From: Dehalococcoidia bacterium
Lineage (GTDB): Bacteria; Chloroflexota; Dehalococcoidia; Lucifugimonadales; UBA1127
Length of the DNA stretch: 50,083 bases
NCBI GenBank assembly: GCA_963694315.1
Contig: CAVOCU010000002.1
Coordinates: forward strand, 1 to 50,083
Reading direction: 5' to 3'
Below are positions 3,717 through 48,435 of the stretch, one piece after another. The position numbers and the translations under genes are program-made. A model generated the notes under the pieces. That model was given only the letters and a program-made list of their open reading frames with translations, had not been told where the DNA came from and did not search any database. Position 1 is the first letter of the stretch, and each line of letters opens with the position of its first letter.

Positions 3717-3873
3717 GCCATCCGGCGGAGACTAAAGACGAATATGTGAGGTCAGAGACTTTAGTCCCCCCGGCCCCCAAGCCAGTCCCAGACACGTGTC
3801 GCTGCGGCGAGGAACTAAAGACGAGTATGCGGCCTGCTGGCCGGAGGACTAAAGCTAGGCCGGGAGACTAAAG
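3717..3873 (-). repeat. Array of about 5 CTTTAGTC-core hairpin repeat units (mostly minus orientation) filling the moeB/cysteine-synthase gap
   Basis: Cores GAGACTAAAG 3728-3737, CTTTAGTC 3759-3766 (inverted), AACTAAAG 3813-3820, GACTAAAG 3847-3854 and GACTAAAG 3866-3873. Also contains the GTGTCGCTGCGGCGAGG module. Confidence 0.85.
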
Positions 3874-3875
3874 CT

Positions 3876-4826
3876 GTGCATGCCCGAACAGTCAAAAGCG
3901 ATATCCTAGACGCCATTGGCGATACTCCCCTTGTATATTTGCCGCACCTCAGCCCAAAGCCTGGGGTCAAAATTTACGCCAAGCTGGAGGGGCACAACCC
4001 CACCGGCAGCGTGAAAGACCGCATTGCCAAGCACATGATTAACCGGGCAGAAGCGGACGGTACCCTCACCCATGACAAAATCGTCCTGGAGCCCACCAGC
4101 GGCAACACCGGCATCTCCCTGGCCATGGTCTGTAAGATCAAGGGCTATAAGCTCAAAGTGGTCATGCCGGAGAACGTCAGCATAGAGCGCGCCCAGCTGC
4201 TTGAAGCGTACGGCGCAGAGATTCTCTTAAGCGATGGCGCGGGCGGCAGCAACCATGCCATCGTCGTCGCGCAGAAACTCTTTGCGGAAAAGCCGGACAC
4301 CTACTTCATGCCATACCAGTACGGCAATGAATCCAACCCGCTAGCCCACTATGAGACCACAGGTGTTGAGATTCTTGAGGCCCTGCCAGAGGTAGACACC
4401 TTTGTAGCGGGGCTTGGCACCGGCGGAACGCTGATGGGCGTTGGGCGAAGGCTGAAAGAGCACAACCCTGCTATCCAGGTCATTGCCGTAGTCCCATCTC
4501 CTGACGATGCCATCCAAGGGCTTCGCAGCCTTGACGATGGGTTCATCCCTCCCATTTTGAACACTGATCTCCTGGACTCGCGCATCATGATTGAGGGCAA
4601 GGAAGCCTTCGCCACTACGCGTTATCTGCTGGAGAAAGAGGGCATCTTTGCGGGGGTTTCCTCAGGGTCTGTCATCGCTGGAGCCCTCCGCATCGCAGCT
4701 AGACTTGACCACGGCAACGTCGTCTGCCTGCTTGCTGATGGCGGGTGGAAGTACCTGAGCACCAACCTTTGGACCACGGACTACGGAGACCTAGAGAGCC
4801 AGGTAAAGGGCAAAATCTGGTGGTAG
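3876..4826 (+). CDS. PLP-dependent cysteine synthase (CysK/CysM family)
   Basis: Contains PTGSVKDR (PLP lysine motif), TSGNTGISLA and GLGTGGT. The start is GTG, 3 nt after the repeat array. Confidence 0.85.
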   Translation: MHARTVKSDILDAIGDTPLVYLPHLSPKPGVKIYAKLEGHNPTGSVKDRIAKHMINRAEADGTLTHDKIVLEPTSGNTGISLAMVCKIKGYKLKVVMPENVSIERAQLLEAYGAEILLSDGAGGSNHAIVVAQKLFAEKPDTYFMPYQYGNESNPLAHYETTGVEILEALPEVDTFVAGLGTGGTLMGVGRRLKEHNPAIQVIAVVPSPDDAIQGLRSLDDGFIPPILNTDLLDSRIMIEGKEAFATTRYLLEKEGIFAGVSSGSVIAGALRIAARLDHGNVVCLLADGGWKYLSTNLWTTDYGDLESQVKGKIWW

Positions 4827-5508: not shown

Positions 5509-5517
5509 GTGCAATCT

Positions 5518-5634
5518 CAGGGACTGGCCTGCGGGCCAGAATCTTTAGTCTCTTCGCCGCAGCGATATGTGCGTGCTTTAGTCTCCGCCGGAGGCCACAC
5601 AGCTTTAGTCCCCTCGCCGCAGCGACACATGCCC
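5518..5634 (+). repeat. Repeat array D-A-B-A between convergent genes
   Basis: GGGACTGGCCTGCGGGCCAGA, followed by CTTTAGTC cores at 5543, 5576 and 5603. It ends 3 nt before the SDR stop codon. Confidence 0.9.
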
Positions 5635-5637
5635 TAA

Positions 5638-6429
5638 CTACGCTAGTACTAGGCCGCCGTCAATGTAGAAGGTCTGGCCTGTAACGTACGATGCGGCATC
5701 GGAGGCCAGGTAGACGGCCATCAAGCCAATCTCCCTCATCCGCCCAACGCGACCCAACGGGACACCACGGGCCGCAGCAGCCTCATCACGCTGCTTGAAC
5801 TGCTCCTCGGTCATCTGCTCGTGGTCAGGGAACTGGCCGGGGGCAATGGTGTTCACACGAACGCCAAAGGGTGCCCACTCCAGAGCCACTGTCTCCGTGA
5901 AGCGAGTCAACGCCGCTTTACCCGCGCCGTAGGCAGACAGGTTTGCACTGGCCTTCCGGGCAGCGAACGACGACACGTTGATGACCACGCCTTGCTTGCG
6001 GCCCACCAGGTGCGGCCCAAAGACCCTGCAACCCTCAAAGGCCTCTGTCAGGTTGATGTTCAGGATGTCATGCCACTCCTGAGAGGTCATGCCCTCAAGC
6101 TCGCCTCCGGGCAGCGCAATGACAGGCTTGCGGATGGAGTCTCCAGCAGCGTTGACCACAATGTCTATGGTGCCAAACTCGCTTATTACCTGCTTGGCCA
6201 GGAACTCCATGTCCTCACCGTGGGTGGCGTCTACGGTCAAGCCCGCGCTTTTGCGACCCATCGCTTCAATCTCTTTGGCTGTGTTTTCCACGTATTTGTT
6301 GGTGAAGCCAGTAACAGCAACGTTTGCGCCGGCGTCAGCCAACGCCATAGCGATGCCCTTTCCGATGCCTCTGCTACCAGCGATGACGATGGCGTTGTTG
6401 CCTTCCAGGCTGAACTCAGTAATGCTCAT
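5638..6429 (-). CDS. SDR-family oxidoreductase (FabG-like)
   Basis: Contains GSRGIGKG (TGxxxGxG), NAAG and YGAGKAA (YxxxK). Confidence 0.85.
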   Translation of the reverse strand: MSITEFSLEGNNAIVIAGSRGIGKGIAMALADAGANVAVTGFTNKYVENTAKEIEAMGRKSAGLTVDATHGEDMEFLAKQVISEFGTIDIVVNAAGDSIRKPVIALPGGELEGMTSQEWHDILNINLTEAFEGCRVFGPHLVGRKQGVVINVSSFAARKASANLSAYGAGKAALTRFTETVALEWAPFGVRVNTIAPGQFPDHEQMTEEQFKQRDEAAAARGVPLGRVGRMREIGLMAVYLASDAASYVTGQTFYIDGGLVLA

Positions 6430-6805: not shown

Positions 6806-6853
6806 AATCGCCTCCTTTCGCCGTAGCGCGTATACCTAAGTCTAGCCTTCGCA

Positions 6854-6933
6854 ATATGCAGGGGACTGGCCTGCGGGCTTTAGTCTCCGCCGGAGGCCAC
6901 ACTACTTTAGTCTCCTCGCCGCAGCGACATATC
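6854..6933 (+). repeat. Repeat array D(truncated)-B-A
   Basis: ATATGCAGGGGACTGGCCTGCGGG, then CTTTAGTCTCCGCCGGAGGCCACA, then CTTTAGTCTCCTCGCCGCAGCGACATATC. It ends 4 nt before the proA stop. Confidence 0.9.
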
Positions 6934-6937
6934 CTAG

Positions 6938-8215
6938 CTAGAGTCGTGTATGCCCGGAGCCGGTGACCACCCACTTGTAGGAAGTCAGCTCCCGCAACCC
7001 CATGGGCCCCCTGGCGTGGAACTTGTTGGTGCTAATGGCCACTTCCGCGCCAAGGCCAAACTCAAACCCATCGTTGAACCCGGTGCTGGCGTTCACAAAG
7101 ACCGCAGCAGCGTCCACCTCGTTGAGGAACCGTTCCGCAGCAGCATCGTCAGACGTCATGATGGCCTCAGAGTGCCCGGAGCCGTACTTTTCGATGTGGC
7201 CCAGCGCCTCGTCAAAGGAGTCCACCACCTTCACCGATAGGATGAGGTCAAGGAACTCTTTGCCGAAGTCCTCTGGCGCTGCCGCAACCACCTTTGCGTC
7301 TTCCTGCGGCCCCAGGAGGCTGACAGCCCTGCCATCGCACCGCATTTCCACGCCCGCCACCCCCAGTTCCACAGCCAGCAGTGGCAGGAAGCGGGGCGCA
7401 ACTTGAGAGTGGACAAGGACGGTGTCCAGCGCATTGCACACGGATGGTCGTCGTATCTTGGCGTTGGTCACTACTGCCACAGCCGCTGCAATGTCTGCAG
7501 TTGGGTCAACATAGGTATGGCAGACGCCAACGCCGCCGGTAATAGCAGGCATTGTGGCGTTCTCACCAACAAAGTTCACAAGCTCTGCGCTGCCCCGTGG
7601 AACCAGCAATTCAATGTACTCACGCATACCAAGCATCTGGAGCACCAACGCACGGTCTGTGTTCTCCACAAACTGGACAGCATCTTCGGGGCCACCAGCG
7701 GCAGTAATCGCATCACGGATGAGCCCCGCCAGGGCTACGTTGGAGTTAATGGCCTCTTTGCCGCCACGCAGGATGCAGGCGTTGCCCGACTTGAAGCAGA
7801 GCACCGCGATGTCCACCGTGACGTTCGGGCGGCTCTCATAGATGACGCCAACTACGCCCAGAGGCACCCGCCGACGTGTCACCAACAACCCGTCCGGCCG
7901 CGTGTGGCTGTCCAATTCCTGACCAATAGGGTCTGGCAAAGCGGCTACGGTCATTACGCCGCCGGCCATCGCCTTCAATCTATCTGCGTTCAGCAGCAAC
8001 CGATCCATGAGAGAGGATGAAAGGCCACTGGCCTGTCCCGCTTCCATGTCCCTGGCGTTAGCCGCCAGAATGGTATCGGCGTGGGTTCCCAACGCCTTTG
8101 CGATGTTGTGAAGTGCTTGGTTCTTGATTTCAGAGGTCGTCCTCGCCAGAACACGGGCGGCAGCGCGGGCTGCTATCCCCTTCTGTTCCAGCTCAGGCGC
8201 TATTGATGTTGCCAT
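6938..8215 (-). CDS. proA: Glutamate-5-semialdehyde dehydrogenase (gamma-glutamyl phosphate reductase)
   Basis: Full-length ALDH-like protein with the VCNALDTVLVH catalytic Cys context and GSGHSEAI. It lies downstream of proB. Confidence 0.92.
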   Translation of the reverse strand: MATSIAPELEQKGIAARAAARVLARTTSEIKNQALHNIAKALGTHADTILAANARDMEAGQASGLSSSLMDRLLLNADRLKAMAGGVMTVAALPDPIGQELDSHTRPDGLLVTRRRVPLGVVGVIYESRPNVTVDIAVLCFKSGNACILRGGKEAINSNVALAGLIRDAITAAGGPEDAVQFVENTDRALVLQMLGMREYIELLVPRGSAELVNFVGENATMPAITGGVGVCHTYVDPTADIAAAVAVVTNAKIRRPSVCNALDTVLVHSQVAPRFLPLLAVELGVAGVEMRCDGRAVSLLGPQEDAKVVAAAPEDFGKEFLDLILSVKVVDSFDEALGHIEKYGSGHSEAIMTSDDAAAERFLNEVDAAAVFVNASTGFNDGFEFGLGAEVAISTNKFHARGPMGLRELTSYKWVVTGSGHTRL

Positions 8216-9134: not shown

Positions 9135-9196
9135 AGGTTTACCTTACGTGAGAGATACGATACTAGTATACAACGTGTGCCTGCGACTAGCCTGTG

Positions 9197-9585
9197 CATA
9201 TACAGGGGACTGGCCTGTGGGTCAGTGGGCCAGTGTTTGCTAGTAGCCAGAAGGAGGCGGGGTCTTTAGTCTCCCGGCCAGCAGGCCGCATGCCTGAGAC
9301 TGGCCTGTGGGCCAGAAGCCGACTTTAGTTCGCGCCGGAGCGATATATGCGCGCTTTAGTCTCCGCCAGAGGCAATACGCCGCATGCTACAATGTTTGTA
9401 GTTAAAGGCCAGCGTTGGAGGCACCCTCTCCACGCGCTGGCCCCTTTTGGCGTGTCTGGGACTTTAGTCTCCTCGCACCAGCGACACATATCTGGGACTG
9501 GCCTACGGGCCAGAAGCTTTAGCCCCCCGGCCAGTAGGCCGCATACTCGGCTTTAGTCTCCGCCGGAGGCAACACGCCGCATATT
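9197..9585 (+). repeat. Largest repeat array (about 10 units, all plus orientation) in the proB/mfd divergent gap
   Basis: CTTTAG cores at 9264, 9323, 9354, 9462, 9517 and 9552. D modules (GACTGGCCTRYGGGCCAG) at about 9205, 9297 and 9495. A unique 70-bp island (9387-9456) sits in the middle. Confidence 0.9.
9407..9450 (+). terminator. Orphan terminator-like hairpin inside the repeat array
   Basis: GGCCAGCG-T-TGGAG...CTCCA-CG-CGCTGGCC followed by CCTTTTGG. No plus-strand gene lies upstream. TACAAT occurs at 9388-9393. Confidence 0.35.
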
Positions 9586-9600
9586 ATTCTAGGGGAACAT

Positions 9601-12600
9601 ATGGGGCTTTCCGGGATTTTGGACATCGTTCAGGAATCGCCTACCTACCAGGGGGCGTTAGCAACATTAGCCAGCGCCAGTAACGGTGCTGGGCCTCTTC
9701 ACATTACCGTCCCCGACGCCGCACGAAGCTATCTCATCGCCTGCCTTTGCCGAGATTTGCATCGCACAGTGCTGCTGATAACGGCGAAGCCAGGGGACGC
9801 TGATCGCCTATCCGACGAGCTGGCAACCATCTTCAGCGGAACCGACGGGACGGCCGATGACAGCACGTTCCAGGTGCTTCGACTCCCAGAAAGCGAAGCC
9901 CTTCCCTACGAGCGGCTGGCAGAGGACGCTGCGGTCTCCCACGGTCGGTTGCGCGTGCTATCCGCACTGTTGGAGCAACAAGGTAAAAACTCCACACCAT
10001 CCGCTAGTAACAGTTCTCAAAAATCAGACTCACATAAAGAGAAGGGTCAAGGGCTCGCCCTTGTGGGGTCTGTGGCGGCGCTGGCACAACGGATGCTTCG
10101 CCCCAACGAGTTTGAGGACGCCACCCACGACCTTGCAATAGGACAGCACGTTCAGATAGGGCCGCTGTTGGCCCAGTGGAGCGCAATGGGCTACGTGCTG
10201 GAAGCCACGGTAGAAGTGCCCGGTACAGCCAGTCGCAGAGGCGGCATCCTGGACATCTTCCCCCCAAGCGAAAGTCAGCCCGTCCGTATAGAGCTGTTGG
10301 GCGACACCATTGAGGACATTCGCCCGTTCGATCCCCTCACCCAACGCTCATCGCCGACTATTCACCACATCACCATCTCGCCAGCCCTCGACCACCGAGG
10401 GACGTTGGGGTTGGACGGCGCACGGATAGCCGACACCGCCGGAATGGACGCGCTGTTGGAGCAGCTTGGCGCGGTTCAGCAGACAAATGAGCCCCTGCAA
10501 CGGATGCAGGAAGACTTGGAGCGACTGCGTAGCGGCGAGGTCATAGACGAAGCGGGTTTTTATGCAGGGTTCTTGTGCGATGGCAGCGTCACAGACTACC
10601 TTCCCGCTGACACCGTGATAGTGACGGTGGAACCTGACAGGGTCTCCCAGGAAGCTGAAGAGCTTAGTAACCAGGCAGCAACCCTGCGCGAGGCCAAGAT
10701 TGCGCGTAATGAATTGCCGGAGAGCTTTCCCTCTCCGTGGTGGCCCTGGAGCGTGGTTGAAGAGCATGTCAACAACCACTCCGCCAAATTGCACCTTAAC
10801 TGGCTTACATCGTCAGAAGACAGAACTGCGGGAGGAGGACTGACCGTCACTCCCTCAACCAGCTTCTGGGGGAAATTGGATGCCTTTGCCACAGCAGTAG
10901 GCCATCGAACTCGAGAAGGCGCGCGGGTGGTGATTCTCTCCAACCATGCAGAGCGGTTGCAAGAGGTGTTGGAAGACTACGGCGTTGGCGCAAAGCTCTG
11001 GGTTGACCTTGATGAAGCACCAGAAGTTGGCTCAGTAGCGCTGGTGGCCGCTCCGTTGCCGGAAGGCATGACATTGGAACTCTCCTCTGGCGCGTTGACC
11101 GTCTTCACCGATAACGAGGTCTTCGGACATTCCAAACGTAGACGCTCCCTCCGCAAGCATGCACAGCGCAGAGAGGCTTTCCTCACGGAATTGGTTCCAG
11201 GCACCTACGTGGTGCACGTCGATCACGGCATCGGGCAGTTCACAGGCGTACGTATGGTATCTGGCGAGCACGGTGAGCATGAGTACCTGACACTGGAGTA
11301 CGCGGAGGGCGATAAGCTCTTCGTCCCCTCGGAGCACCTGGACAGACTCTCGCCATACCTTGCCCCCGGCGATAGCTCTCCAACCCTCACTCGATTGGGC
11401 AGCCAGGAATGGGCGAAGGCCAAGGAGCGCGCCCGAACTTCTGCGAAAGAGATGGCTGGCGAGCTGGTGGCCCTCTACGCCGCCCGGCAGGTGCTACCCG
11501 GCCATGCGTTTTCTCCAGACACGGTGTGGCAGAGGGAGATGGAAGACGCTTTCCCTTTCACGGAGACACGAGACCAGTTAGAAGCCATTGACGCGGTAAA
11601 GGACGCAATGGAAGCCCCGCACCCCATGGATCACCTGATATGCGGAGACGTGGGCTACGGGAAAACGGAGATTGCCATTCGCGCCGCGTTCAAAGCCGCA
11701 CAAGACGGCATGCAGGTTGCCATGCTCTGTCCCACCACGGTACTTGCTCAGCAGCACTACACCTCCTTTACCGATAGGCTCAGCCCGTACCCGGTTCGGG
11801 TTGAAGTGCTGAGCCGGTTCCGCACCCCCCAGGAGCAGCAAGAGGTCATTAAGGACTTACGTGAAGGCAAAGTGGACATCCTCATCGGCACGCACCGCAT
11901 CCTCCAGAAGGATGTGCAGTTCAAGAACCTTGGCCTGGTAGTCGTCGACGATGAGCAGCGGTTCGGCGTGGTGCACAAGGAACGGTTCAAGCAGCTACGG
12001 CGTGAAGTGGATGTCCTGACGCTGACGGCTACGCCAATCCCTCGTACCCTCTCAATGGCACTGGCGGGGGTACGCGATATGACCACCGTCCACACACCCC
12101 CGGAATCGCGTCTGCCCGTGCGCACCTTCGTCTCGGATTACGAGGACAGCATTGTGCAGGAAGCGGTTCTGCGAGAGTTGGATCGTGGCGGGCAGGTCTT
12201 CTTCCTCCACAACCGCATCCGCACCATCCATGAATGGGCAAACCGCATCCAGGAGCTTGTGCCCCAGGCGAAAGTGGCCGTAGGGCATGGTCGGATGGAC
12301 GAGGACGAGCTGTCCGGCGTCATGAACTCCTTCATGGACGGCAAAGCAGACGTACTTGTCTCTACCACCATCATCGAGGCGGGTCTAGACTTGCCCAACG
12401 CCAACACCATCATCGTGCATAGGCCGGAGTTGTTGGGGCTTGCGCAGATGTACCAGCTACGAGGCAGGGTAGGCCGAGGGAACCGCCACGCCTATGCCTA
12501 CTTCCTGGTGCCACCCGGCACACGTATGACGGAAGCAGCCCAGAAACGACTGAAAGCCATCGTGGCCTACCAGGAGTTGGGGGCAGGTTTCCGCATTGCC

Positions 12601-16728: not shown

Positions 16729-16807
16729 ATCAAGGCATCATTGTAGCGCATCAGCGTTGCTGGTTGACCTAATTCGAACACAAAGCCGCCAGCCCAAAGA
16801 GAAGAGT

Positions 16808-16824
16808 CCAGGGCATCGCCCTGG
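16808..16824 (-). terminator. Short hairpin directly after the purH stop
   Basis: CCAGGGC-ATC-GCCCTGG. In the minus-strand sense it is followed by the T-rich ACTCTTCTCTTT. Confidence 0.4.
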
Positions 16825-23839: not shown

Positions 23840-24160
23840 GTGGCTTAGCCACTTTTGTGCTTCGCGGGTGTCGGTCGGGCGGGTATTTAGCCGGCTAAAG
23901 GGCCAGCACCGGCTAGAAGAAATAACCAATAGCGGTGTAAAAGGTCAGCACTCATATACCTTTAGCGCTACTGGCAGTAGTTGTCGCAGATCAAGAACGA
24001 CGGTGTTAATTGTCACCATCATGTGCGGGGGTAGGCTTCTCTTCTGCTACTTCTTCAACCGCTTCCGGTTGGGCAGGTTCACTGGCTGCAGAAAGAAACC
24101 AATAGCTGTCTAGGTAGCTCACCACAGCCGATTCAATCACCTCGGAGTCATCAAGTTAAG

Positions 24161-24202
24161 GCCAGACCCAGACGTATATGCGCTGCGACGAGGAGACTAA
24201 AG
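24161..24202 (-). repeat. Single A-type repeat unit next to the tsaD stop
   Basis: GCCAGACCCAGACGTATATGCGCTGCGACGAGGAGACTAAAG. Confidence 0.7.
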
Positions 24203-24220
24203 CCACCCGTTAGGCCAAGC

Positions 24221-25330
24221 TCAGTCTTGTGGGGCCAGGCTCAGCCTGGGGTTGGCGTCCACTGCCAAGGTGGGCTGGAGGCCTCGCTGCATACCGTAGA
24301 ACGCCGCTGCGGCAATCATAGCGCCGTTGTCCGTGCACAGCACCAGGCGAGGGATGACCACAGGAACCGGTGACTTCTCCCGGATAGTTGCCCTTAGCAA
24401 TGCGTTGGCTGAAACGCCGCCGCCCACCACAATCCCTCTGGCGGCATATTGTTCAACGGCCTCCAGCGTTTTCCCTACCAGCACATCCACCACCGCGTCC
24501 TGGAACCCTGCAGCCAGAGCCTTTCGCTGCTCTTCACCAGCTTCGGCCAGGCCCTCAGACCTGTCCCCTCCATATGTCGCTGCGGCGAGGGGACTAAAGC
24601 CCGCGCCCTGGTCAGGAACGCCCTGGTCTACGCCCACCGCCACGCCAAGCTCCTTGGCTTTCCTCAGCAGTGCAGTCTTGAGGCCGCTGAAGCTGAACTC
24701 CAAGGTGCCACGCATCCACGGTCTAGGCAGGGGCTCAGAGCGTGTTGCCAGGGCCGCCTCGCGCTGGACTGCCGGCCCGCCGGGGTAGCCGAGGCCTAAT
24801 ACTCGCGCCGCTTTATCAAAAGCCTCTCCCGCTGCATCGTCACGGGTGCTGCCCAGGAGTTGGTAATCGCCGTGACCTCGCATCAGAACCAGCTCCGTGT
24901 GCCCGCCGGACACCAGCAGACAGACCATAGGGAAGCCTATAGCCTCCTCTGGCGTGGGGCCTTCCTCAAGCCAGCCCGCGTACATGTGTCCTTCAAGGTG
25001 GTTCATGCCGTACAGAGGCACTCCAAGGCCCATAGCGATGCCTTTGGCGTAGTTCACGCCCACCAGGAGAGAACCCGCCAGTCCGGGGCCAGCAGTGACC
25101 GCTACAGCGTCTAGATCGGTGGGGGCCACGCCAGCCTCGGCGAGGGCAGCGCGGTAGATGGGGGTGATGGCTAGCATGTGCTGTCGTGACGCGACTTCCG
25201 GGACGACGCCACCGTAGCGGGCGTGCACCTCGACTTGGGAGCTGATGACGTTGGAGAGGATGATACGTCCGTCACGGACAACAGCAACAGCCGTTTCGTC
25301 GCAGGAGGTCTCAATGCCAAGTACTAGCAT
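24221..25330 (-). CDS. tsaD: tRNA N6-adenosine threonylcarbamoyltransferase
   Basis: Contains [22 protein letters not shown] and CTDNGAMIA. At 369 aa it is about 30 aa longer than usual because of an internal insert. Confidence 0.93.
24548..24628 (-). repeat. Repeat element (D-like / A / D-like modules) inserted in frame inside tsaD
   Basis: 24571-24599 is CATATGTCGCTGCGGCGAGGGGACTAAAG, a perfect A unit. In the gene sense it is translated as FSPLAAATY (residues 245-253). The flanks resemble D modules. Confidence 0.8.
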
Positions 25331-26034: not shown

Positions 26035-26083
26035 CATGTGTCGCTGCGGCGAGGGGACTAAAGACGCAGCCGGATAGCTAAAG
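26035..26083 (-). repeat. Two repeat units between the TPP-decarboxylase beta gene and the PP2C-like gene
   Basis: CATGTGTCGCTGCGGCGAGGGGACTAAAG followed by ACGCAGCCGGATAGCTAAAG. It abuts the stop codon at 26084. Confidence 0.85.
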
Positions 26084-27354: not shown

Positions 27355-27995
27355 GTGCCGGCGTCAGCGCCCGTTGGGGAGCTAGAAGCTTCTGGCCTGA
27401 TGGCGTCCGCTCCAGCATCGGCGGGTCTGTCAGCGGTTCGGCTGCGAGCGCCTGTTGCTATACCAGCGGCCCTGTCAAAGCCAGCGGAGGCCCTGTCCAT
27501 TGCGCCCTTTGGACGCAGCCCTCGGTCACGTTTGAGGGGAAGTGGCACCACATCGATGCTGCTGGCATCAACCCACTGCCCGTCCAGCGACCCATCCCGG
27601 TCTGGTTCGGTGGCGGCGCCGACGCCCTACTCCGACGTATTGCCAGGATGGGTGACGGGTGGATTAGGGAGCCGCAGGTGCAGACGCGAAAAGAGAACCA
27701 GGCGATGCTTGACCGTTTGTTCGGTTTTGCCGAGGAGCTTGGTAGGGACCCCGCCAGCATTGGGATTGAAGGGCGCATAGAGTTTGTGGACAACCCGACG
27801 GAGCCGGCTGTGCTGGCTGCGTTACGCGACTGGCAGGACATGGGTGTGAACATCGTGACGTTGAGCACTAGGGCCGTTGGGCTGGACTCGCCCCAGGAGC
27901 AGATGAACGCCCTCAAGAAGTACATGAATGTTGCGATACCCTTTAGGTGCAGGGTCTTTAGCCCTCCGGCCCGCAGCGCACATGCCGGACTTTAG
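27355..27995 (+). pseudogene. Remnant of an LLM-class (luciferase-like, F420/FMN-dependent) oxidoreductase: C-terminal half only, with a frameshift
   Basis: ALWTQPSVTFEGKWHHIDAAGINPLPVQRPIPVWFGGGADALLRRIARMGDGWI matches the C-terminal half of LLM proteins. The upstream residues are plausible only in another frame (...PAALSKPAEALSIA...). A terminator hairpin sits where the N-terminal half should be. The 3' end runs into a repeat array. Confidence 0.6.
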
Positions 27996-28076
27996 TCTCC
28001 GCCAGAGGCGACACATAGGTCTGAGACTGGCCTGTGGGCCAGAGGCTTTAGTCTCCTCCACCACAGCGACAGACAG
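27941..28076 (+). repeat. Repeat array (units with cores at 27941, 27956, 27989 and 28046, plus a D module at 28024)
   Basis: Contains CTTTAGCCCTCCGGCCCGCAGCGCACATGCC, CTTTAGTCTCCGCCAGAGGCGACACAT, GAGACTGGCCTGTGGGCCAGAGG and CTTTAGTCTCCTCCACCACAGCGACAGAC. Confidence 0.85.
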
Positions 28077-28911: not shown

Positions 28912-28999
28912 ACATGTGTCTGGGGCTGGCCTGATGATCAGAGGGGCTGACTTCAGTCTCCGCCGGAGGCAAGACGTCTTTAGCCCCTTCGCCGCAGCA
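28912..28999 (+). repeat. Repeat array D-B-A (diverged)
   Basis: CATGTGTCTGGGGCTGGCCTGATGATCAGAGG, then CTTCAGTCTCCGCCGGAGGCAAGAC, then CTTTAGCCCCTTCGCCGCAGCATG. Confidence 0.8.
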
Positions 29000-29105
29000 T
29001 GAGGATGATAGGGTGAGGCGACGATATGGTCAATGCTTTGTGGTGTCTCGACCTCCCTCCATGAGGGGACTACCCTATGGACTGTAAATTTTAAGGAGGT
29101 GTCCA

Positions 29106-29418: not shown

Positions 29419-29524
29419 CAGGCCAGAGGCTTTAGTCTCCCGGCCCACAGGCCGCATACGGCTTTAGTCTCCGCCGGAGGCAATATTGCCTTTAGTCCCC
29501 TCGCCGCAGCGACACATGTCTGGG
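29419..29524 (+). repeat. Repeat array D(truncated)-C-B-A filling the whole gap between convergent stop codons
   Basis: CCAGGCCAGAGG, then CTTTAGTCTCCCGGCCCACAGGCCGCATACGG, then CTTTAGTCTCCGCCGGAGGCAATATTGC, then CTTTAGTCCCCTCGCCGCAGCGACACATGTCTGGGG. Confidence 0.9.
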
Positions 29525-38111: not shown

Positions 38112-38680
38112 TAGCTCCGTTCCTCTGGTGTCTGGTCATTGGCCCCATCGGTACCCGTCAGGGAACGTGGGTCCAGAGTATCGCCCTGGCCCTGCCCGTC
38201 TGATGCTCGAGCCAGAATAATCGCGCCAATGAGGGCCATCAATAGAACCAGTGAGGCTATCTCAAAGGGCAAAACCCAGTTGGTGAAAAGCTCTGTGCCC
38301 AACCCTTCAAGGCTTGGGCCAGCGAGCTCTTGTGTATCGAGTTTGTTGTTGAGGATGACACCGGCCATCACACCAAGGAAGCTCAGCGCAGCTACAGCGG
38401 CAACGGCCCATTGGGGGTTGTCGCGGACATTGGAGAATTCCTCAGCGCGAGTCAGCATCAGCGCGAACAGAAGCACGATGGTGATGGCACCCCCGTAGAT
38501 GAGCACCTGCACCAAGGCCAGAAACTCAGCCATCAGGAGGATGAACACCCCGGCTACAGAAACCAGACTTAGGAGCAGAAAAAGGGCCGCATGGGCCACG
38601 TTGCGTGTGGTCACCACGCCTATCGCGCCACCTAGCACCATTACCGCCAGGAAGGTAAAGGCTACCGCACTGGCATCCAC
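38111..38680 (-). CDS. nuoJ: NADH-quinone oxidoreductase subunit J
   Basis: 189-aa membrane subunit between nuoI and nuoK. Confidence 0.88.
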   Translation of the reverse strand: MDASAVAFTFLAVMVLGGAIGVVTTRNVAHAALFLLLSLVSVAGVFILLMAEFLALVQVLIYGGAITIVLLFALMLTRAEEFSNVRDNPQWAVAAVAALSFLGVMAGVILNNKLDTQELAGPSLEGLGTELFTNWVLPFEIASLVLLMALIGAIILARASDGQGQGDTLDPRSLTGTDGANDQTPEERS

Positions 38681-39312
38681 TACTTGGCCTCCTCTACAGG
38701 GGGCTCTTTAGTCTCCGCACCGGCAGTCGTGTCATTAGCTGGCGCATCTTTAGTTTCTGTAACATCACCGGCAGACGCAGAAACGGCTTTAGTCTCTTCG
38801 CCGACAGGTGCAGTAGCAGCAGCCTTTGCAGCAGCTATAGCGGCTTTCTTAACCTCAGGGGCTATCCAGTTGGACTCAGCCTGATACTTCTTACCCATCT
38901 CCAACAGCACCGGTAGGTCTGACCTACGCCCGTCACGGGCATAGTGGCTGATTTCGTGCTCGTGGCTCATTTCAATGGCGTCAAAGTTGCAGACCTCAAC
39001 GCACAGGCCGCACAGAATGCAGCGACCTAAGTTAATCTCAAACTCTTCAATAATCTTGCGGCGGGTGCTCTTCCCCTCAGCGTGAAGAGGGTTGTCAATC
39101 ATCGTGCCGGACATACACTGCGTGGGGCACATGCGCACGCACACCATGCAGCCAACGCAGTACGGTTCACCCACCTTTGCGTCCCAGGTCAGGGCCGGGA
39201 ACCCAACTTGCCGTTCCATGAGGGGCAAGTGCTGCTTGGGGTACTGGGCAGTCACTGGCTTCCGCAGCGATGTCTGCAGGGTCATTAACATGCCCTTCAA
39301 CGTACTAAGCAC
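38680..39312 (-). CDS. nuoI: NADH-quinone oxidoreductase subunit I (2x[4Fe-4S]) with a C-terminal low-complexity extension of about 50-60 aa
   Basis: Contains CVGCMVCVRMCP and CILCGLCVEVCNFDAIEM. The tail is ...KKAAIAAAKAAATAPVGEETKAVSASAGDVTETKDAPANDTTAGAETKEPPVEEAK. Confidence 0.92.
   Translation of the reverse strand: MLSTLKGMLMTLQTSLRKPVTAQYPKQHLPLMERQVGFPALTWDAKVGEPYCVGCMVCVRMCPTQCMSGTMIDNPLHAEGKSTRRKIIEEFEINLGRCILCGLCVEVCNFDAIEMSHEHEISHYARDGRRSDLPVLLEMGKKYQAESNWIAPEVKKAAIAAAKAAATAPVGEETKAVSASAGDVTETKDAPANDTTAGAETKEPPVEEAK
38706..38830 (+). repeat. Three degenerate CTTTAGT-core units embedded in the 3' end of nuoI, read as E-T-K
   Basis: Cores at 38706-38713, 38748-38755 and 38787-38794, spaced 42 and 39 nt apart. 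The third unit, CTTTAGTCTCTTCGCCG, matches the unit at 5543 for 17 nt. Confidence 0.55.
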
Positions 39313-46126: not shown

Positions 46127-46180
46127 TTCAACCCTCCAAATAGTGCAAATACTATAGCATGGCAGAGTGTTATCCTGCAC

Positions 46181-46372
46181 CCTGACCCACAGGCCAGTCC
46201 CCGGCATGTCGCTGCGGCGAGGGGACTAAGGCTCCGGCCCCCCTGGTCTACAGGCCAATCCCCGGCATGTCGCTGCGGCGAGGGGACTAAAGCCGTATTG
46301 CCTCCGGCGGACATAGCGGTGACGGAACATTACAAAATTACACTGTAATCTCCTCGCCGCAGCGACATTTGT
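46181..46372. repeat. Repeat array upstream of nuoA: D-A-D-A-B(degenerate) in minus orientation plus one inverted A unit
   Basis: CATGTCGCTGCGGCGAGGGGACTAA(A)G occurs twice (46205-46230 and 46266-46292). The arms ATGTCGCTGCGGCGAGG (46267-46283) and CCTCGCCGCAGCGACAT (46352-46368) form a 17-bp inverted repeat with a 68-nt spacer. Confidence 0.9.
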
Positions 46373-46523
46373 AACCGCAGGAGTGTGGGTCAAGGGCATC
46401 GCCCTTGCCTGTGCTAAAATGCTCCTGCTAGCGAATAGGGAGCGGTGAAACACGAACGCCTTTGCGACTCGATACTTAGCGGCGCTGGAGTACAAGGACT
46501 ACCGGTGGCTGTGGCTTGCTGCC

Positions 46524-47967: not shown

Positions 47968-48286
47968 CCAGGGCTGGCCCTGCATATACACCCGATGTAA
48001 TAACGGGTTAACTTCCTCGAGTGACCATTAGGAACTCGGGTCAAGGGCCTCGCCCTTGGGTCAACTAGCGGCCTCAGTCACCACTGCGCCCTTGGCTGGG
48101 CGGCGCGCGGCTTGCGCCTATTGCACTACCTCCTCCATTGCACCGACGTCGGGCATGAAGATTGGCTCTTTAGCGATGTGTTTTCCTTTGTTCTTAAGCC
48201 AGTAACCCTGAGCGCGATGGGCTATATACTCAAACCAGAAAGGCCCGGAGTAAAGCCCGGTGTAGGTCGAGGAATGGTAGCACAGG

Positions 48287-48393
48287 CATATGTCGCTGCG
48301 GCGAGGGGACTAAAGTCGGCCCGTCTGGCCCGCAGACCAGTCCCCTTCATATGCGCCCAGTTGACAGACTGATTCTGCGCGCGGAGACTACAG
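48287..48393 (-). repeat. Repeat array A-D-(B/A variant), minus orientation
   Basis: CATATGTCGCTGCGGCGAGGGGACTAAAG, then TCGGCCCGTCTGGCCCGCAGACCAGTCCCC, then ...CTGCGCGCGGAGACTACAG. Confidence 0.85.
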
Positions 48394-48435
48394 CCAAATT
48401 CCAGCGAAAGCACAAGTTGAGGGGAGCGATTTTCA

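Follow-up and report, generated by a model that had tools for sequence, protein, structure and literature searches.

Rickettsia palindromic elements (RPEs) occur as in-frame insertions within genes that encode proteins (Ogata et al. 2000, via PMC10969869), and intragenic MITEs (ERIC, BOX, and Nezha-type) can form in-frame fusions (PMC10969869). Here, we describe a repeat family of the Chloroflexota lineage SAR202, one unit of which lies in frame within tsaD, and compare it with these and with the REP/BIME elements of enterobacteria and Pseudomonas. The likeness to RPEs lies in a short palindromic interspersed repeat that sits in frame in housekeeping genes and is translated as an added peptide, in its toleration within a segment apparently compatible with the fold, and in what appears to be a hit on more than one gene, with the TsaD loop and the NuoI tail as the SAR202 cases. 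However, RPEs measure about 100 to 150 bp, belong to an alphaproteobacterial genus, and have dozens of coding insertions, whereas the SAR202 unit measures 29 nt, the insertion added 57 nt, and the family is modular and mostly intergenic, which sets the two apart by size and host.

REP/BIME elements, like the SAR202 family, consist of imperfect palindromes of about 25 to 35 nt with short GC-rich stems, form mosaic intergenic arrays that often lie at gene 3′ ends, and combine several unit types with conserved linkers, the number of units varying between strains. The hairpins are present here too, with stems of 4 to 6 bp predicted for units A, C, and D and a weak one for B. In contrast, REP units alternate and are by definition extragenic, whereas the SAR202 units are for the most part arranged head to tail with a single orientation, all have a GGRGACTAAAG tail, and include a tsaD copy that is translated. 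MITEs resemble the tsaD unit in being small nonautonomous repeats inside an ORF that is not destroyed, but the tsaD unit is far shorter and by eye has no recognizable terminal inverted repeats or target-site duplication. The closest known phenomenon is RPE-type in-frame insertion and the closest architecture is REP/BIME; judged by its size, by how its units are oriented, and by terminal inverted repeats and target-site duplication, the family falls outside both RPE and REP/BIME.

The tsaD gene and its protein

The tsaD copy assessed is the one in the window, that is, the whole stretch of 50,083 nt that was analyzed, where it forms a 369-aa ORF on the minus strand.

24221..25330, minus strand: tsaD coding sequence, 369 aa, intact (ORF list, TIGR03723, structure alignment, and alignment A1)

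The protein matched the TsaD equivalog TIGR03723 (381.4 bits against a cutoff of 296.1), the insert loop breaking the match into two parts, and solved TsaD structures aligned with residues 1-223 and 264/266-366, so that a single loop was left out. In alignment A1, H111 and H115 were invariant and D334 was nearly invariant (E. coli H111, H115, and D300), and FSFSGLK was found at residues 212-218; the roles of these motifs (the metal-binding HxxxH, the C-terminal Asp, and the FSFSGLK tRNA D-stem motif) are described in PMC6009658 and PMC13276492. With the conserved motifs all kept, tsaD appears otherwise intact, and its product would, by analogy with other bacteria, be essential in the uncultured SAR202 host.

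The loop left out of the alignments comprises 42 residues in the window TsaD and 8 in E. coli (about 40 versus 7 to 8 when E. coli/Salmonella are taken together). An initial annotation of this DNA had put the segment at about 51 residues versus about 17 in E. coli, which is about right, since 42 residues lie between the aligned blocks versus 8 in E. coli. Only 19 of the approximately 34 residues in excess of E. coli are repeat derived; the remainder represents an older, lineage-wide expansion, and even without the repeat, the loop exceeds that of E. coli by about 15 residues.

An AlphaFold2 model (built with alignment A1) had a mean pLDDT of 81 and values below 50 at residues 235-259, a stretch that sits between predicted helices 215-227 and 263-295. 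Together with the FSFSGLK before it, the first of these helices is the counterpart of alpha7, and alpha7 touches the D-stem of the tRNA in cryo-EM structures of T. maritima TsaB2D/tRNA (PMC13276492); the loop belongs to the TsaD helical insertion that grips TsaE (PMC6009658). Judging from the model, the insert probably forms a flexible loop at the surface. The expectation, implied in the initial annotation, of a loop remote from functional surfaces found no support in this context. The alpha7-alpha8 loop is also an indel hot spot in its own right: unrelated insertions or duplications occur in P0003-P0006, P0010, and P0016 (A1 columns ~236-310), including APLTRADEDVA in P0004 and 27 residues in P0005. 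The idea that the APLTRADEDVA insert of L085/P0004 came from another repeat was dropped, as no second copy occurred in the loci examined.

The repeat unit and its family

The initial annotation reported a perfect A unit in the sense frame of tsaD, and both the ORF and the copy count bear this out.

24571..24599, minus strand: perfect A unit (copy count versus shuffles; 4-bp hairpin TCGC/GCGA)

This 29-mer, CATATGTCGCTGCGGCGAGGGGACTAAAG, is in frame within tsaD and is read in the coding sense as CTTTAGTCCCCTCGCCGCAGCGACATATG, residues 244-253. It matches the family at 29 of 29 positions, and the intergenic copy at 48287-48315 has exactly the same sequence. At ≤3 mismatches, 7 copies occur in the window, whereas shuffled sequence would give 0, and a 24-nt core of the unit occurs in 12 copies. 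FSPLAAAT, which had been noticed in intergenic ORFs as well, is indeed encoded by short open frames over five intergenic A copies (~5604, 26039, 29491, 46268, and 48291). The recurrence of the 29-mer against none in shuffles, together with the spread of FSPLAAAT across the intergenic copies, indicates that the original observation is real. The A unit has four stop-free frames, one of which tsaD uses.

The family as a whole forms mosaic intergenic clusters of units of about 27 to 35 nt, to which the GGRGACTAAAG end is common. The stems are TCGC/GCGA in A, CGGCC/GGCCG in C, and CTGGCC/GGCCAG followed by TCCCC in D, and clustered units mostly follow one another head to tail in one orientation. 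The clusters fill gaps between long ORFs.

~3720-3880: repeat cluster
5510-5640: repeat cluster
6850-6940: repeat cluster
9190-9580: repeat cluster
27950-28070: repeat cluster
28930-29010: repeat cluster
29420-29520: repeat cluster
46180-46370: repeat cluster
48280-48400: repeat cluster

D-A composites recur often: a D unit directly precedes A in 3 of the 11 other A copies in the window, and the GTCCCC tail of D is able to pair with GGGGAC of the A unit. A CRISPR-like origin, suggested by the unit sequence GTCGC...AAAG, was rejected: the units abut with a period of 27 to 35 nt, have differing stems, and leave no spacers. Rfam at the gathering threshold matched no family anywhere in the window, and a literature search for SAR202 repeats turned up nothing specific and no description of such units. 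A different palindrome, GGGTCAAGGGCATCGCCCTTG, which the repeat scan grouped as family D12, is also present in the window in 4 copies (16804-16824, 38169-38189, 46387-46407, and 48038-48058).

An exact 25-mer of the A unit was matched by just 36 stretches in the metagenome collection, which marks the family as narrow. A screen of about 45 perfect A copies from public metagenome contigs, with ORFs taken as predicted and not checked by homology, placed only the tsaD copy clearly inside a genuine long ORF. The family was present in L082, L085, L092, and L094 and absent from L088-L091 and from the more distant Dehalococcoidia loci L001, L008, and L027. Two intergenic sites near tsaD allowed comparison between genomes.

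24174..24207, minus strand: A-like unit just 3′ of the tsaD stop codon (units at the orthologous site: 1 in the window, 4 in L094, 5 in L092)
26035..26063, minus strand: intergenic A unit two genes upstream of tsaD, the comparison copy for intergenic conservation

Beside the A unit orthologous to 26035-26063, L092 has an extra C-type unit (~9230-9300), upstream of the neighboring gene. Because unit numbers differ at orthologous sites of close relatives, units are evidently gained and lost one at a time, and rapidly.

Extent of the insertion and origin of its flanks

Compared with the closest insert-less orthologues, the window tsaD carries an insertion of 57 nt, or 19 codons, corresponding to residues 237-255, with boundaries that are ambiguous by a few nucleotides.

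24566..24622, minus strand: lineage-specific 57-nt insertion (alignment A1; DNA compared with L082, L085, L091, L088, and L089)

In alignment A1, the insert falls between DQ and DR(S/P)EGL in the window protein and in P0001, whereas insert-less loops run straight through this point (P0007, ...AVGLDQ-GRPEGLDEAGE; P0002, ...LAQ-DRPEGLDAAGE). The size of 57 nt follows from the junction DNA, which reads GACCAAGGC|AGGCCTGAGGGCCTGGAC in L082 and GCCCAGGAC|AGGCCTGAGGGCCTGGAC in L091 against GACCAG + 57 nt + GACAGGTCTGAGGGCCTGG in the window. The initial annotation had counted about 27 added residues (81 nt) and proposed an alignment with orthologues of close relatives; this alignment confirmed that the segment is missing in relatives and reduced its extent from 27 residues to 19 codons.

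The same annotation took both flanks of the A unit for inserted D modules. This does not hold for the flank that encodes (G)DRSEGL, which is ancestral coding sequence apart from its first codon.

24547..24568, minus strand: D-like palindromic sequence GGGGACAGGTCTGAGGGCCTGG (GACAGGCCTGAGGGCCTGGAC in L082, L085, and L091; homology with outgroup L088)

L082, L085, and L091, which have no A unit, carry GACAGGCCTGAGGGCCTGGAC at the place of this flank, and it is positionally homologous and equal in length to DGPEELD (GACGGCCCGGAAGAGCTGGAC) of outgroup L088 and positionally homologous to DAPGILLD in L089, although the outgroup sequences are not D-like. Since insert-less relatives carry the flank, we rejected it as a part of the insertion. 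Its counterparts in L081 and L085 lie within 3/20 mismatches of the D consensus; roughly estimated, 50 kb should contain about 0.003 matches of this kind, which makes it improbable that the ancestral flank resembles D by chance. The ancestral form GGGGACAGGCCTGAGGGCCTGG (GDRPEGL; window 24547-24568, L085 ~10734, and L081 ~1473), within 3/20 of the D consensus, retains a 6-bp palindrome, CAGGCC/GGCCTG, from which the D consensus stem CTGGCC/GGCCAG differs on both arms.

The other flank consists in part of a 15-nt local duplication, which encodes DQGVP and DQGAG.

24599..24628, minus strand: 15-nt tandem pair GACCAGGGCGTTCCT / GACCAGGGCGCGGGC (read from the sequence)

The first six bases of the pair, GACCAG (D235 Q236), are ancestral, and copy 2 in full, like the remainder of copy 1, lies within the insertion; in L081, the copies read GACCAGGGCGTG-CCT and GACAAGGGCGTG-GGC. 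By eye, this pair is the only direct repeat beside the tsaD A unit, on one side only, and no target-site duplication or terminal inverted repeats are evident around the unit; nor did a candidate transposase come to notice.

Distribution of the insertion among relatives

The nearest TsaD proteins belong to SAR202 Chloroflexota. Close-relative loci were taken from contigs that encode a similar TsaD; in a scan of contigs with the TsaD protein, identities reached at most 59% among the matches listed. NCBI, JGI, Logan, and ENA together provided 27 contigs with the exact window protein, the longest of 109,761 nt, and in the cluster at ≥90% identity, all loop-spanning members carried the insert and were 94 to 100% identical to the window protein (member P0125, of 99 aa, was left out of the alignment). 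Insert-bearing genes fell into three alleles (the window, L081/L094, and L092/L093) with 3 to 7% tsaD DNA divergence, which hold the insert at one codon and have allele-specific substitutions in the flanks.

The segment was missing from the closest orthologues, P0002-P0016 (~85 to 88% identity), and from outgroups (~76 to 82%), which keep DRPEGLD or DGPEELD at unchanged length. L088, L089, L090, and L091 had no repeats of this family in the surrounding DNA and no A-unit segment in tsaD. Because outgroups and sister lineages are without the insert, the gain is lineage specific, and because the sisters and two outgroups lack it at unchanged loop length, a single gain is most parsimonious. Thus, repeat-free orthologues carrying the loop, which would have spoken against an insertion, did not turn up, and the recurrence of the insert in many independent assemblies and three diverged alleles contradicts the assembly error that the initial annotation had considered. 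That annotation proposed an intergenic repeat inserted in frame and tolerated or exapted; insertion and toleration stand, while the evidence reaches as far as toleration and not to exaptation. By these comparisons, the insertion is genuine, fixed, tolerated, and in frame.

The relatives differed from the window in some further respects. P0124 (378 aa) combines a window-type loop (QGAG...GGDRSE...AEAGEEQ) with a long P0001-type C terminus, a mix that suggests possible recombination between alleles within the population. In the P0001/P0122 allele (L081 ~1841-1846; L094 ~10850-10855), which ends ...GGC GGG CTT TAG, the tsaD stop is the TAG of CTTTAGTC, a downstream repeat motif, and the window allele stops earlier, at PQD*. 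Between tsaD and the phosphoribosyltransferase gene, the window (23840-24220) is without the HTH_3 and DUF2851 genes that are present in L081, L092, and L094, and a repeat cluster lies at the junction where they are missing.

Conservation of the repeat core

We compared variable sites among the three insert-bearing alleles and found that the A unit and the adjoining bases form an invariant core.

24571..24602, minus strand: invariant 32-nt core (comparison of three alleles)

None of the 32 sites of this core, GGGCTTTAGTCCCCTCGCCGCAGCGACATATG, varied, which is lower than the rate in the rest of the loop, codons 229-270 (22 of 94 sites; one-sided Fisher test, P value = 0.0008), and lower than that at third codon positions (61 of 355 sites; P value = 0.003). 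Against the gene-wide rate (85 of 1,066 sites), the difference was nonsignificant with n = 3 alleles (P value = 0.07). Between the window and L081, 6 of the 9 nonsynonymous changes fell in the loop.

The intergenic copies behaved in the same way. The A unit at 26035-26063 shows no difference between the window, L094, and L092 and matches at 27 of 29 positions in L082, while its flanks diverge, and retained intergenic units are 89 to 98% identical between genomes versus 82 to 87% for other intergenic DNA. Because the intergenic units are equally conserved, conservation of the core looks like a property of the repeat and not of the TsaD peptide. The invariance would then reflect constraint on the repeat DNA/RNA, or homogenization against other copies, and not the function of the peptide.

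A second coding occurrence in NuoI

NuoI, encoded at 38680..39312 on the minus strand, has a C-terminal tail with three ETK motifs.

38683..38830, minus strand: NuoI tail, three degenerate repeat units in frame (sequence, module numbers in relatives, and the L132 tail)

The DNA of the three motifs reads ...GGCGAAGAGACTAAAG..., ...ACAGAAACTAAAG..., and ...GTGCGGAGACTAAAG..., with a spacing of 39/42 nt. NuoI tails of relatives carry roughly one to six E[EG]TK modules, often as PAGE[EG]TK (loci L132 2273-2995 and L133 1001-1675). The L132 tail contains, in frame, 33-nt hairpin units, an A-like unit CCGATGTGTCGGCTGCGGCCGAGGAGACTAAAG, and a D-A composite CTGGCCCTCAGGCCAGTCCCCAACATGCACCTGCGGCCGAGGAGACTAAAG, the last translated as GPSGPQASPQHAPAAEETK. 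GEGTKA is exactly what the A unit encodes when a different open frame is used, and the TsaD loop and the NuoI tail translate the repeat in different frames and orientations. On this evidence, the NuoI tail appears to be the second case in this lineage of the repeat family within coding sequence.

Origin of the insertion

The explanation that we consider quite probable is that a single unit of the modular family inserted in the alpha7-alpha8 loop of TsaD, and that this arose once, in a SAR202 species-level ancestor, and was fixed and tolerated. One hairpin-repeat unit would have been copied into this variable loop, accompanied by about 28 nt of sequence that includes the 15-nt local duplication. 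The A unit may have landed beside a preexisting sequence that mimics a D module, A-D composites being, we infer, standard in the family. Templated recombination with an intergenic D-A-D array, with GACCAG and GACAGGCCTGAGGGCCTG as microhomology, is an attractive putative route, because the ancestral loop resembles D units on both sides, with GACCAG like the close of one D and GACAGGCCTGAGGGCCTG like the beginning of another that follows. Alternatively, the unit may have arrived in the same way as single units are inserted between genes, where their number changes; we slightly favor recombination. The length of 57 nt and the stop-free frame together mean that 19 residues were gained, and the gain would have been tolerated with these residues placed in a predicted disordered loop and the conserved TsaD motifs all kept.

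Three other explanations have to be weighed against a tolerated single gain. Metagenome assemblies are known to go wrong at short repeats, and such an artefact, an assembly error or chimera that collapsed a repeat into tsaD, could be imagined here; yet the identical protein is found on 27 contigs from four sources, three diverged alleles hold the insert at one codon, and the reading frame and downstream sequence are undisturbed, so that we regard its probability as practically negligible. That the segment is instead ancestral to a wider clade and was deleted in relatives draws on the D-like sequence that adjoins it and is common to L082, L085, and L091, on the fast gain and loss of units at intergenic sites, and on the proneness of the loop to indels. 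However, this would need at least two precise deletions, because the sisters P0002-P0016 and the two outgroup lineages L088 and L089 are all insert-less with equal loop length; moreover, the outgroup loci have no member of the repeat family at all, and the tsaD unit still matches the family consensus perfectly. We therefore judge loss to be highly improbable.

Exaptation, in which the insert contributes to TsaD function (for example, in the handling of tRNA or TsaE) or retains a function of the repeat at the nucleic acid level, finds support in a 32-nt core that is invariant in three alleles within what is otherwise the most variable part of the gene. The position of the loop, after the alpha7 contact with the tRNA D-stem (PMC13276492) and within the helical insertion that grips TsaE (PMC6009658), and the translation of the same family in the NuoI tail point in this direction as well. 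But the significance of the core varies with the background rate, falling away against the whole gene (P value = 0.07), and the equal conservation of intergenic copies makes constraint at the protein level unneeded; the insert region is also predicted to be disordered, close relatives manage without the segment, and their loops accept unrelated indels. On balance, exaptation seems decidedly unlikely.

Meaning of the finding

In-frame insertion of a repeat is in itself not a new principle. What the tsaD locus offers is a clean, dated case of a protein loop lengthened by intergenic repeat DNA, in which the source element, insert-less relatives, and three diverged descendants can be examined together. 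It also identifies the alpha7-alpha8 loop of TsaD as a site that tolerates large insertions, and it comes from SAR202, an abundant uncultured ocean lineage whose repeat content is apparently undescribed.

A bolder proposal, which we put forward tentatively and consider unlikely, is that the SAR202 family is a recurrent source of peptides (TsaD and NuoI), that the tsaD element is kept as an active DNA/RNA hairpin, and that its site next to alpha7 could modulate tRNA or TsaE. If this were true, translation would not keep the tsaD hairpin from acting, be it as an RNA structure or as a site of recombination or protein binding, to name some examples. The occurrences in TsaD and NuoI together suggest that Rickettsia-style gain of peptides from selfish or structural repeats is not limited to reduced intracellular genomes.
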